NCBI GenBank assembly: GCA_003971905.1 | Contig: RSEE01000091.1 | Location: 186,001 to 250,000, forward strand | Origin: Moniliella sp. 'wahieum' | Lineage: Eukaryota | Reading direction: 5' to 3' | Length of the DNA stretch: 64,000 nucleotides | Part shown: positions 59,292-64,000 of the stretch, in pieces | Position numbering within the stretch: the first letter of the stretch is position 1 | Layout of the letters: every line of letters begins with the position of its first letter | Notes under the pieces: generated by a model | Told to the model about the DNA's origin: nothing | Database searches by the model: none | What the model saw: only the letters and a program-made list of their open reading frames with translations | Position numbers and translations under genes: made by a program

Positions 59292-59331
59292 CTACCACTG
59301 GGTTACTGAACCTACCACTGGGTTACTGAAC
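59292..59331. repeat. Perfect 20-bp tandem duplication (CTACCACTGGGTTACTGAAC x2)
   Basis: Identical adjacent copies at 59292-59311 and 59312-59331. Confidence 0.9.
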
Positions 59332-59485
59332 CGCTGAGGAAAGTGAAAACACAAACTACCAGCCCACGTAACCTCATCCGCTAAATGTACTCTCCATCTA
59401 TCTTAATCCTCATCCTCATCATCCTCATCATCCTCATTATCTTTGTCTGGAGGACAAACGGTAGTGCAGTCGCTTAGGCCGCGAG

Positions 59486-60730
59486 TTACGCATCCTCCCG
59501 CACCCAATCTCCACTGCGTCCACCGCTTTTGGCCACAACCTTGAGATCGTCAATCACCATCTCGGTACCCGCCAGGGCCTTGGTCATGTCCCAAACGGTG
59601 AGGCAGCAGTCGAAACGCCAGCCAAGGCCTCCATCTCGACACCCGTCGGGCCAGTGGTACGCGCGGTACAACGGACCACGACATACACCCTCCCTCCTCT
59701 GGCTCGTCCCAGGCCAGATCCACCTCCACTTGGCTCAAGGCCAACGGGTGGCACAGCGGTACTAGCTCCGCTGTTTTTTTGGCACCCATGATCCCAGCCA
59801 ACTGAGCAGTGTGGAAGATGGGGCCTTTGGTAAGAGGTCCACGACCCTGTTCTGCCGCCTGAACCGCTTCCACCGTCCCGCTCGGTAGCCAGATCCGGCC
59901 TTGGGCTGTGGCGCTGCGCCGGGTAGCAGCTTTGTGCGATACATCCACCATGTGCACTCCGCCCTCTTTGGGCCCTGGGGGGGCAACGTGGGTTAGGCGT
60001 GGGGCTGCAGGTACCGGGCGCGGCACAGGTGGGGGTGAAGTGTACATTGGTCCTCTCCTGGCCGACTGAGCCGATGCCTCCATTTGAGGCGAGTCCCGTG
60101 CAACCATCTGCGCCACAAGGGCTTTCATGGCCAGCGTTTCGGCGCTGTCCCCGGGCTGAGGGGCCGTGGCCGAGCCCATAGCCAGATCCTGTCCGTCCCA
60201 CCCTTGCGAGGCGAACGGGGAAGAAGTCGGACCGGAAGGCAGGGGCGCAACGACGGTGGAACTATCGGCAAAGGCATCGAGGTTGGACCAGGGATTGTCG
60301 TCGTCCTGGCTGGTGCCCATGTATTCGGACCAAGTCTGTTGCGCTGGGTTGGGGTTGGACGCCATGCTTGGGGAAGTGGGCCGGGGGTGGTGAGCGAATG
60401 TGGTCTGGGCTCGGTCCATGGAAGGGGCAGGGCTGAATGAGGGCGGGAACGCAGACGGAGGCAAGGACGAAGGGGATGAGCCAAGGTACTTGCTTGGGTC
60501 CACGTCTTCCCACCCATCAAAGTGCAGCATATCGTTCCATGCGTTGGCGAGGTCGTCGTTATCGGTACCGTGGTTGGGGGGCGAGCGGGCAGTAACAGTG
60601 GAGGTATGGAGAGTACGAGCAGAGCTGCGCAGTGCAGCTCCGAATGGACGGGCACGCAGGCGCGCGTGGAGCCGCTGGCGGGCCGCGCCCCCGAACGGAC
60701 GGTAAGAGGGCAGGGAAGACGAGGTGGGGG
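59486..60730 (-). CDS. Cyclic pyranopterin monophosphate synthase (MoaC/MOCS1B) portion with long N-terminal linker
   Basis: LTHV...VHMVDVSHK..TRRSATAQG, KGPIFHTAQLAGIMGAKKTAELVPLCHPL, TGVEMEAL, LTVWDMTKA, KSGGRSGDW. Confidence 0.92.
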
Positions 60731-60920
60731 CTGCAAACAAAAGGGAAAATGACGGGATCAGCAGCTACTCGACAACACAACCATCCAAATGTACCTCCAC
60801 TGGGTCCCGAGTGCAGGGGCACCCCCCAAGAGAAAGGAGGAAGGGAATATTAGGAATGGGGGATAATAAGGGGTCGAGCAACGCTGTAGGTACATATGGG
60901 CAGGAAAGTGAGGTTGCCGG

Positions 60921-62455
60921 TTACCCGCCAATGTGGATCATGGGTCGGTTCTTGTGCCGCGCAATATCGCCGGGCGATCGCATCCCGGCATGCTTGGCAT
61001 GTTTCCGCCCCACCGCCGCGGCAATCACCTCCAACAGTTCCTCGTCCGTTGCCCCGCCCTGCCCAGCAGTCGTTGCCTCCCCTGCCCTCTGCCCTGCCTC
61101 GCATCTGGTCGCGGAGGGAGACCTCCGTGTTCCCAAACAAGCACACCTTCAGGTTGCCGTCGGCTGTGATGCGCAATCGATTGCACGTACCGCAAAAATG
61201 GTCGGTCATACTGTATCATCAGTTCCAGTGCGTCAGTACAGCCGAACGCAACGAATTTCTTACTGAGGACAGGACGTACCTTGTGATGAAACCAAGGCTA
61301 CCTTGGTACCCAGGGACACGCCAGTGCTTGCTCGTGTCATTCTTATCGTCTTGGAGGCGTTCCAGTGGCCCATAGATGTTTTGGAGCTGAGCGAGCAATG
61401 TCTGATACGGTACCAACTTGGACGTTTGCCATTGGTTGCCGTCAAAGGGCATGTACTATGAGCCGGCCAAGTGGTTAGGACCACCAAACCAGAACCAGAA
61501 ATAGGCCAGGCCACAAAAGAGGAAGGTGGACGTACCTCAATAAACCGCACGACAACATTATGCTCGCGCGTGTAATCAACAAATGCGCGCAATTCCTCGG
61601 GCGAATCGTTGAGGCCCTTGAGAACGACGACATTGATCTTCACGCTCTGCAAGGGAAGTGACTGGGCCAGTTCAAGCGCGGCTAAAACCTTGTCCAGCGC
61701 ACCGGCAGGGCGACGCGTCATAATCTCAAATTTGAACGGGTCCATCGTGTCGAGAGAAAGGTTGAGGTGGGTAAGTCCAGCGTCAACGAGCGCGGGTAGG
61801 CGGCGGCTAAGTGCCACCCCATTCGACGTCATTCCGATTGATTCCAGACCATCGGCACGTAAGCCGCCGAGTGCGGCTGAAAGGGGAGCGAGTTAGATGT
61901 GGAGAAGAGAGGGAGACAGCGCGAAGAAGGGGGTAGGAATTTGGGGAGGCAGGGGAGGCATGGACACGCACTGAGAATCTCGGGCAAGTCGCGACGAATA
62001 GTAGGCTCGCCCCCTGTGAGGCGGATTTTGGTCACACCGCTGTGCACAAAAAGGCGGGCAAGGCGACTGAGCTCGTCGGCGGTGAGCAACTGAGCAGAAG
62101 GAGTAAGCGGGACGCCGTCGGCGGGCATGCAGTACATGCAGCGCAAGTTGCATCGCTCGGTCAGGGACAGGCGGAGGTAGGTGTGAGCACGGGCATGCCG
62201 GTCAATGAGCGCTGGCGCAACCGCGCGGCGGTCGATATCAGCAATGCGTTTGCGAGCGGTGCTAGCGAGGGCTTCGGCGCTGGCAGACGGAGATGTGAGA
62301 GCGGAGATGGGGGCAGCGGCAAGTGAGCCGAGGCCCCGCCGTCTCGGCAAGGACGAAGACAAGGGAGAGGCCGGAGCAGCAGCCTTAGCCCTGGCTATGA
62401 CCATCGCCATTGGGCCCAGTTGAGGACGCGTGGCTTGCATCGACGGCAGCACCAT
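60921..62455 (-). CDS. GTP 3',8-cyclase (MoaA/MOCS1A radical SAM) portion
   Basis: [19 protein letters not shown] (CX3CX2C), [50 protein letters not shown], terminal [11 protein letters not shown]. About three introns. Confidence 0.95.
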
Positions 62456-63099: not shown

Positions 63100-64000
63100 G
63101 TGAGGAACAGGGGGATCTCCTCCTCGTCGACCTCGATCCGGGGGCGAAGGAGTAAATGTCAGGGTCGCCTTCCTCGGACTTCTCATGGACGACGGTGAGG
63201 CGCTGCAAGTTGGTAAAGAAGTCTTCCAGGACCTCGTTCTTGGTCAACGGACCGGCGGCCCATACGGTTGATCCAGCCAATCTTGTTCAGCACGTAGTAC
63301 ACCACCGTGACGATGATCGTCACACCAATGGAGTACGCCCAAACGCGCACAACAGTAACCACGTCGGTCCAGTTGTGCTTGTTGTGGCGCAAGCGGGGAG
63401 TGAATGTACTCGGCAATTGGCCCGCCGAGCCAACCAAAGAGACAGAAGATCGTAGCCAACGCATCAAACCCAGAATGGCCCCGACCAGCTCCCAGGATGG
63501 GATAGTGTTCTCATCCGCCGAGCCGGAACCAAGACGAGTGACAAAGATGAGCCAGTTCTCAGTGAGCGAGACTTCGAGGAAGAGGATGAGCTGCAGGTTA
63601 CCAAAGTTTTGCACAATCCCACCGTCCGGAAGGAAAAGGGTACCACGAACAATCCACGTGCCGGCCGCAAGCAGGATGCCCAGGATGGTGGAGATGGTCC
63701 AGATCTTGGGCAGTTGCCACTCGACTGGCTCCTTGGCAGCGGGAGCGTTGTCGTAGGCAATGGCGATCGTGGCCAAGTCGGCAAAGAGGGCGATAAAGAC
63801 AATCAGGTCGGCACGGATCACCTCGTCCCGGATGCAGATCGAGAGCAAGAGGTAGATTTCAAGGTGGAGACAGAGCGAGATACGGTACTGGATGTACGCC
63901 TTCATACGGTGGAAGATCTGACGAGCAACCTTGATCGAGGTAATGATGGTCGACAGACCCTCGTCGAGGAACACCACGTCGGCTGCCGAGCGGGCAGCGT
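63100..64000 (-). CDS. PMA1: Plasma membrane P-type H+-ATPase, C-terminal part (runs off window end)
   Basis: AARSAADVVFLDEGLSTII, ARQIFHRMKAYIQYRISLCLHLE, FIALFADLATIAIAYDNA, LFLEVSLTENWLIFVTR. Stop position uncertain because of frameshifts. Confidence 0.93.

Follow-up and report, generated by a model that had tools for sequence, protein, structure and literature searches.

One minus-strand locus for MoaA and MoaC in a Moniliella contig: a MoaA stop codon inside a candidate splice donor and a possible 5-nt exon ahead of the MoaC linker

How can a single fungal locus supply both MoaA, with a free Gly-Gly at its C-terminus, and MoaC? Failure of the human MoaA/MoaC locus causes molybdenum cofactor deficiency type A. 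The question was raised by a stretch of 64,000 nucleotides (nt) of Moniliella sp. 'wahieum' (contig RSEE01000091.1, positions 186,001 to 250,000; hereafter the window, numbered from its first letter), in which MoaA, a linker and MoaC follow one another in one minus-strand locus. The Pfam domains stand in the order Radical_SAM, Mob_synth_C, MoaC, and both halves of the locus were covered by tblastn with fused relatives. Judged from its sequence, the locus belongs, as a single gene, to the nit-7, cnxABC and MOCS1 kind. We consider it probable, at about 0.75, that alternative retention and splicing yields MoaA or a MoaA-MoaC fusion from this one locus. A switch between these two products is already known in fungi, and the locus would add a further example. 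All features described below lie on the minus strand unless stated otherwise.

The MoaA frame ends with ATT GGC GGG TAA, i.e. with Gly-Gly directly before the stop codon (60923-60921). The same Gly-Gly-stop end is common to the MoaA proteins of Tilletiaria and Tilletia, and the tail encoded in the window aligns to ..NRPMIHIGG of Tilletiaria. The stop codon is overlapped by a candidate donor, GG|GTAACC (60919..60924, GT at 60924-60923), which would interrupt the frame in phase 2. A preliminary description of the locus had pointed out this ending and the donor at 60924, and both were found on the minus strand. Its remark that no ATG opens the linker frame at the 5' end was also borne out: the first ATG of the 404-codon MoaC open reading frame (ORF) is codon 79, at 60530. 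Because the linker frame has no ATG before this codon, a spliced fusion would be the natural way to an importable MoaC.

The MoaA part consists of four exons. Exon 1 (61972..62455) starts with the ATG at 62455 and encodes an N-terminal extension and the beginning of the radical-SAM domain (Radical_SAM, PF04055, 8.3e-12; also aligned by tblastn). Exon 2 (61536..61876) encodes the remainder of this domain (3e-11). Exon 3 (61280..61455) carries the first part of Mob_synth_C (PF06463, 1.7e-6, which is under the curated cut-off for the exon alone; also aligned by tblastn), and exon 4 (60921..61210) extends through ..RPMIHIGG and the TAA. The exons are separated by three introns regarded as constitutive: intron 1 of 95 nt (61877..61971, TCA|GTGCGT ... 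CTAAC ... TTTCAG), whose flanking exons align to relatives, intron 2 of 80 nt (61456..61535, GAG|GTACGT ... CTAAC ... CATAG) and intron 3 of 69 nt (61211..61279, AAG|GTACGT ... CTGAC ... ATACAG). In all three, the branch motif CTAAC or CTGAC is located 18-24 nt upstream of the AG. The CxxxCxxC motif of MoaA was found in the spliced translation (..CNLRCMYC..), as was ..FCGTCN..VC... The spliced coding sequence is 1291 nt long and contains one net +1 frameshift within 61105-61049 in exon 4 (distance mod 3 = 1). The closest named relatives of this MoaA are those of Tilletiaria anomala (66% identity over 120 amino acids, exon 2) and Tilletia horrida, which places the fungus among the basidiomycetes, near the Exobasidiomycetes.

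The first 40 codons of the linker (60612..60730) are rich in Arg, contain no acidic residue and end with ..RTLHTS; they resemble a mitochondrial presequence with a cleavage site and may serve as such. LHTS and several of the Arg residues are invariant in an alignment of three sequences, the window and the Logan ORFs P0007 and P0008, which are the nearest relatives of linker plus MoaC (59 and 55% identity, respectively). The remaining linker and the MoaC domain occupy 59486..60611, where the stop codon is at 59488-59486 and the frame shifts twice by a net -1, near 59695 and near 59606. The MoaC domain is of full length: positions 1-80, 82-109 and 109-136 of the 136 positions of PF01967 were matched in three abutting frames, with scores of 1.2e-23, 7.4e-7 and 5.1e-5. 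The corresponding tblastn matches, in frames -3, -2 and -1, also abut and leave no space for introns, and the last two pieces are 65-74% identical to relatives.

In the proposed mechanism the MoaA part would always lose its three ordinary introns. If the stretch following ..IHIGG were kept in the messenger RNA (mRNA), translation would end at the TAA and active MoaA with a free C-terminal Gly-Gly would be made. If the stop codon were spliced out, MoaA would be fused in frame to the Arg-rich, presequence-like linker and MoaC. The fusion would carry MoaC into mitochondria, where MoaC would be cut free, as is the case with N. crassa NIT-7AB and human MOCS1AB. The two mRNA forms, the import and the cleavage are what we infer from the analysis of the locus.

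The layout was compared with basidiomycete gene models, which are predictions. A total of 123 sequences were sorted, 115 of them matches of one homology search and 8 from other searches. Ninety-eight of the 123 were MoaA-MoaC fusions, 16 were MoaA-only models ending with ..IGG, and 9 fell into other classes. ..IGG stood directly before the linker in 51 of the 98 fusions; in 17 the junction was inside the second Gly codon and in 2 it was one residue earlier. The other 28 fusions lacked the tail motif used, at least 7 of these being Rhodotorula models with a divergent ..MVGIG tail that are of the same type. A predicted donor at or beside the MoaA stop codon is the common basidiomycete layout, the window included: the window and the 98 fused models share one one-locus arrangement across Basidiomycota, in which the stop codon is usually inside the splice donor. 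A literature search found no paper on this MoaA-MoaC junction in basidiomycetes. Uninterrupted fusion ORFs were present in Logan contigs of 1.9-2.2 kilobases (kb) (P0202, P0211 and P0255), two of which, P0202 and P0211, encode fusions of 527 amino acids in 1.9-2.0 kb that keep ..ILIGG. MoaA-only ORFs were found in contigs of 2.4-2.7 kb (P0170, and P0174 with 412 amino acids in 2.4 kb). Judging from their sizes, these short contigs are probably complementary DNA of the spliced and the retained forms.

Several observations weigh against a retention/splicing switch at this locus. In the present sequence the phase of the obvious donor (phase 2) differs from that of the obvious acceptor (60731/60730, phase 1), thus an extra assumption is needed under every splice path. 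All seven fused models of the Ustilaginomycotina drop the MoaA tail, and they do so at six different junction sites, hence the true junction in this subphylum is not fixed by the models; the gene models of these smut-like fungi disagree with one another at the junction. Relatives from the Ustilaginales have an in-frame Met 7-24 residues before an R-x-F-x-S-S motif, which leaves room for independent translation of MoaC in that order. Finally, the MoaA-MoaC gene of the window contains three frameshifts, which had to be attributed to the assembly.

The junctions in the seven Ustilaginomycotina models follow FCG, RTG, IIG (twice), HAG, LIGAA or LIGTA. Since five of the seven come after Gly, the pattern expected of phase-1 G|GT donors, the models suggest that the acceptor is in phase 1 throughout the subphylum and that the software finds no consistent donor there. 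Two fused models, P0162 of Melanopsichium and P0175 of Tilletia horrida, also skip the ..SMTxxFCGTCN.. segment, which suggests mis-predicted acceptors at the intron corresponding to intron 3 of the window. The window itself reads VIAAAV at the position of IIG and GGG ATG at that of HAG|M. As there is no GT at either position, the phase-1 routes of the window are limited to a donor at 61190, within exon 4, and to a micro-exon in the spacer between MoaA and the linker.

The micro-exon route would consist of two short introns flanking the pentanucleotide TGGAG (60795..60799), which stands in the context CCCAG|TGGAG|GTACAT. Candidate intron A (60800..60924, 125 nt) would begin with GTAACC at the stop codon and contains CTAAT (60853-60849) and a run of 20 pyrimidines (60847-60828); its CCCAG is the first AG downstream of CTAAT and the pyrimidine run. 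Candidate intron B (60731..60794, 64 nt) would begin with GTACAT and contains GCTGAT (60762-60757), a pyrimidine-rich run and TTTGCAG (60737-60731). Joining 60925 to TGGAG and TGGAG to 60730 gives ..IHIGGGAPTSSS.., the frame of the 404-codon MoaC ORF (59550..60764), and the resulting fusion, ..IHIGG-G-APTS.., would keep the whole of MoaA. The direct join of 60925 to 60730 is out of frame. These elements had been noted in the preliminary description together with the claims that splicing of both introns restores the linker frame and that skipping the micro-exon does not; the elements are present as given there, and both claims were confirmed by making the joins.

The micro-exon route is in frame without changing any base. 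Each of its candidate introns has a donor, a branch-like motif and pyrimidine run of its own, and an acceptor that is the first AG thereafter, and with 125 and 64 nt they are similar in size to the other introns of the gene (69-95 nt). Neither donor has a G at +5, a weakness to be expected of frequently retained introns, and the first of them is at the Gly-Gly codons, as in 51 of the 98 fused models. The phase-1 acceptor on which the route depends seems to be real. The 3' part of intron B is likely to be the acceptor under every splice model; there is a single AG at 60731, by which a NAGNAG shift is ruled out. The P0007 ORF starts with MCFFFAAV.. and the window reads ..LLFAAP.. across TTTGCAG|CC, so that P0007 passes the acceptor as ..FFFAA|V..; this match of three residues is consistent with the same phase-1 acceptor in an independent assembly. 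The Gly before the junction in five of seven Ustilaginomycotina models would fit G|GT donors joined to such an acceptor.

How often such a layout arises by chance was estimated with 5000 dinucleotide-preserving shuffles of the spacer interior. The loose requirement for a rescue (AG followed by 2, 5, 8, 11 or 14 nt and GT) was satisfied in 46% of the shuffled spacers, and in 22% when GTR was required. When a CTRAY motif and the absence of AG between were also demanded, the proportion fell to 2.9%, and to 2.1% with YAG. A layout as good as that of the window thus occurred in only 2-3% of the shuffles, a figure that overstates the surprise, since the strict criteria were chosen after the case had been seen. 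Other points also speak against TGGAG: in intron A about 49 nt separate the branch site from the AG, compared with 18-24 nt in the constitutive introns, exons of this size are rare, the canonical donor at 61190 is equally in frame and competes, and the argument hangs on one base in an error-prone assembly.

We regard the micro-exon route as possible but doubtful. A little more doubtful still is the wider proposal that TGGAG is a real exon which reconciles the phase-2 donor at the Gly-Gly-stop with the phase-1 acceptor, and that the same micro-exon may recur across the Ustilaginomycotina. If hidden in all of these genomes, it would explain why seven of seven fused models skip the MoaA tail at six inconsistent sites. 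If true, it would be a rare example of a fungal exon of a few nucleotides with a clear function, gating the choice between two enzymes of a single pathway.

Neither homology nor codon usage selected a frame behind the acceptor. When the first 40 linker codons were locally aligned in all three frames to six relatives, with shuffles as controls, no frame was significant; the best z values were 1.6 for the linker frame (with P0007) and 2.7 for another frame (with P0015). Codon-usage scoring of the three frames was uninformative, two of the training segments being out of frame, and was discarded. Because the assembly is unreliable at the level of single bases, the linker frame is not fixed by homology and other in-frame routes exist, the micro-exon cannot be considered established.

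The first of these other routes is a single intron of 460 nt from 61190 to 60731. Its donor, GCG|GTACGT (61185..61190), would be exonic, located in the FCGTC codons, and is in phase 1 and in frame with the 60731/60730 acceptor as the sequence stands. Splicing would remove the last ~95 codons of MoaA together with the stop codon and give ..DHFC-A-PTSS..; the unspliced form would encode MoaA. The hexamer GTACGT recurs as the donor of introns 2 and 3, and in the gene model of Kalmanozyma brasiliensis the join falls on this very residue (..NFCG|ASKQ..), although this is a software model and not a transcript. In the proven systems, the fused MoaA part either lacks activity or is degraded (PMC7232280; 10.1101/429183). 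On the other hand, 460 nt is five times the length of the other introns of the gene, and a perfect donor suits poorly an intron whose retention must be frequent. GGT ACG may merely encode the Gly-Thr of the conserved FCGTCN, for which Tilletiaria has FCNSCN, and the long intron leaves the succession of CTAAT, 20 pyrimidines, CAG and GTACAT unexplained. We consider this route rather unlikely.

The other route to be weighed against TGGAG is an ordinary single intron, the frame mismatch being a 1-nt artefact of the assembly. The quality of the assembly was judged from the coding sequence that could be checked (~3.1 kb), which contains five well-supported frameshifts and a probable sixth, i.e. ~1.6-1.9 indels per kb, of both signs. 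One of the well-supported frameshifts is in MoaA, two are in MoaC and two in a neighbouring plasma-membrane H+-ATPase gene of the PMA1 type, whose 3' part (63100-64000) matches the solved yeast and Neurospora enzymes (8.8e-68). In this gene two compensating frameshifts near 63470-63380 break the alignment to the solved enzymes for ~28 residues, and the matching ..DALATIFCLFGW.. stretch sits in another frame. The probable further shift is near 63240, on the basis of what we take to be the usual H+-ATPase tails. Searches of the PDB with the short out-of-frame pieces of the H+-ATPase gave chance matches only. Since breaks of the same sort occur in the H+-ATPase gene, the frameshifts in MoaA-MoaC are attributed to the assembly, and arguments from frame that turn on single bases are unsafe on it. 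By comparison with P0007, the -1 frameshifts of MoaC (59584-59700 and 59489-59608) look like single bases missing from short runs; by eye, the long A7 and C7 runs near them are read correctly.

With errors of both signs at this frequency, two single introns can be envisaged. GG|GTAACC could be joined to 60731 (194 nt) if there were one base too many in 60730-60612, or GAG|GTGATT, a candidate phase-0 donor at 61023..61028, could be joined to the same acceptor (298 nt) if one base were missing after the donor in that segment. A C5 run (60730-60726) and a G5 run directly follow the acceptor. The first 40 linker codons are free of stop codons in each of the three frames, none of which is significantly similar to the six relatives, and Agaricomycotina models as a rule join directly at GG|. 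However, P0007 reads ..FFFAA.. across the acceptor in the phase of the window, and the direct ..IGG| junction was used in none of the seven Ustilaginomycotina models, five of which join right after Gly, as a phase-1 acceptor would lead one to expect. The prior for an error of the right sign within those 120 nt is, moreover, only ~0.1 for each form at ~1.6-1.9 errors per kb. An artefact of this kind is unlikely.

Equally unlikely is a fusion made by some other, unspecified splice route, several candidates for which were tried and rejected. Readthrough of the stop codon followed by splicing of the 64-nt intron would use a frame that is open from the TAA to GAG|GTACAT, but with the present bases it arrives in the wrong phase. 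GC-AG donors such as TTG|GCGGGT are in frame but match poorly. The acceptors TAG| at 60764, CAG| at 60674 and GCAG| at 60624 either have no pyrimidine tract or would excise the conserved Arg-rich segment.

Seen against these routes, the switch between intron retention and micro-exon splicing put forward in the preliminary description was sustained in part. A single locus, a Gly-Gly-stop within a donor and the agreement with nit-7 and MOCS1 speak for the switch; the micro-exon as its instrument was not shown, and another in-frame donor exists at 61190. The frameshifts in MoaA, MoaC and the H+-ATPase gene and the other in-frame pairs of donor and acceptor had not been mentioned there.

A different possibility is that MoaC is made independently of MoaA and no fusion exists, either from an mRNA starting in the spacer or by internal initiation. 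CT-rich runs near fungal start sites are known, and in the former case the 20-nt CT run would be a promoter element and the 64-nt stretch an intron of the 5' untranslated region. In some species MoaA and MoaC are annotated as two genes, e.g. Melanopsichium CDI51016.1 and CDI51015.1; in the Ustilaginales relatives the in-frame Met lies a short distance ahead of the presequence-like motif, and in P0007 an ATG coincides with the acceptor. This ATG is, however, missing in two of the six members of the P0007 cluster, which start with MLHFDGW. In the window, the first ATG of the linker frame (codon 79) is past the conserved Arg-rich ..LHTS part, and the frame that feeds the GTACAT donor has a stop codon at 60852-60850 and no ATG. 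A further objection comes from N. crassa, where NIT-7B translated from its own Met failed to reach mitochondria (PMC7232280). We judge independent expression of MoaC to be improbable, more so than any of the splice routes. Decay of the locus into a pseudogene with real frameshifts, for which the three frameshifts within MoaA-MoaC might be taken, is highly improbable, given that the neighbouring gene for the H+-ATPase, an enzyme whose gene is normally essential, shows the same kind of breaks, that the conserved parts contain neither in-frame stop codons nor large deletions and that the MoaC pieces have kept 65-74% identity to relatives.

Some further features of the locus were recorded. A motif in the linker, AW(N/D)DMLHFDGWEDVDP.KYL (60485-60545), is invariant in the window, P0007 and P0008 and absent from the linkers of Ustilaginales. 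A second motif, QTWSEYMG..D.PW..LDAFAD, is more widely shared and occurs in two copies in P0007. A degenerate form of it, WSEYMG..PW..LD.F, had one match in the window and none in the metagenome contigs, and a search for related loci in metagenomes with the linker alignment matched 341 stretches, none of which was confirmed. On the plus strand, an antisense ORF of 186 codons (60706-61266) spans the MoaA tail and the entire spacer. The G+C-rich coding DNA most likely accounts for it; a search for relatives gave 247 candidates, none of them significant. Directly after the MoaC stop codon there is a short tandem repeat of the GATGAG/GATGAT type (59405-59445), and two direct copies of GGTTCAGTAACCCAGTGGTAG were found at 59300-59345.

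Among the known systems, the nit-7 locus of N. crassa is the nearest in outline, with MoaA upstream, followed by a linker and MoaC in one fungal locus. According to PMC7232280, the unspliced nit-7 mRNA gives NIT-7A, whose Gly-Gly end and stop codon are both encoded in a 237-nt intron, and the spliced mRNA encodes NIT-7AB, from which NIT-7B is released after import into mitochondria. The gene has this single intron, with the donor upstream of the Gly-Gly codons, so that the fusion is made without them. The window differs from nit-7 in its three additional constitutive introns and in a GT donor placed precisely at the stop codon; in the present sequence this donor and the acceptor are in different phases. 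The cnxABC gene of Aspergillus nidulans is reportedly also a single locus with MoaA-like and MoaC-like domains. PMC7232280 mentions that it was discussed as bicistronic.

Human MOCS1 likewise has MoaA-type and MoaC-type frames at one locus. The stop codon and the Gly-Gly are removed by alternative splicing, which distinguishes type I from type II/III transcripts, and a linker of ~95 residues before the MoaC part contains an internal targeting signal and a cleavage site (10.1101/429183). In contrast to the window, the alternative sites of MOCS1 are in a separate exon 9 and there are four alternative first exons; the human fusion always loses the Gly-Gly, and no micro-exon is involved. For micro-exons, the fungal comparison is Xlr2 of Trichoderma virens, where inclusion or skipping of a very small exon changes the protein made; according to PMC11121469, no functional micro-exon had been reported from a filamentous fungus before 2024. 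Xlr2 is another gene with another logic, and the micro-exon of the window is a candidate.

The MoaA-MoaC models of Agaricomycotina and Pucciniomycotina have the same domain order as the window and the donor on or next to the stop codon. In these models the direct splice is in frame, whereas in the window it is not. The Ustilaginomycotina are the nearest group of the window, and all seven of their models, too, avoid the direct ..IGG junction.

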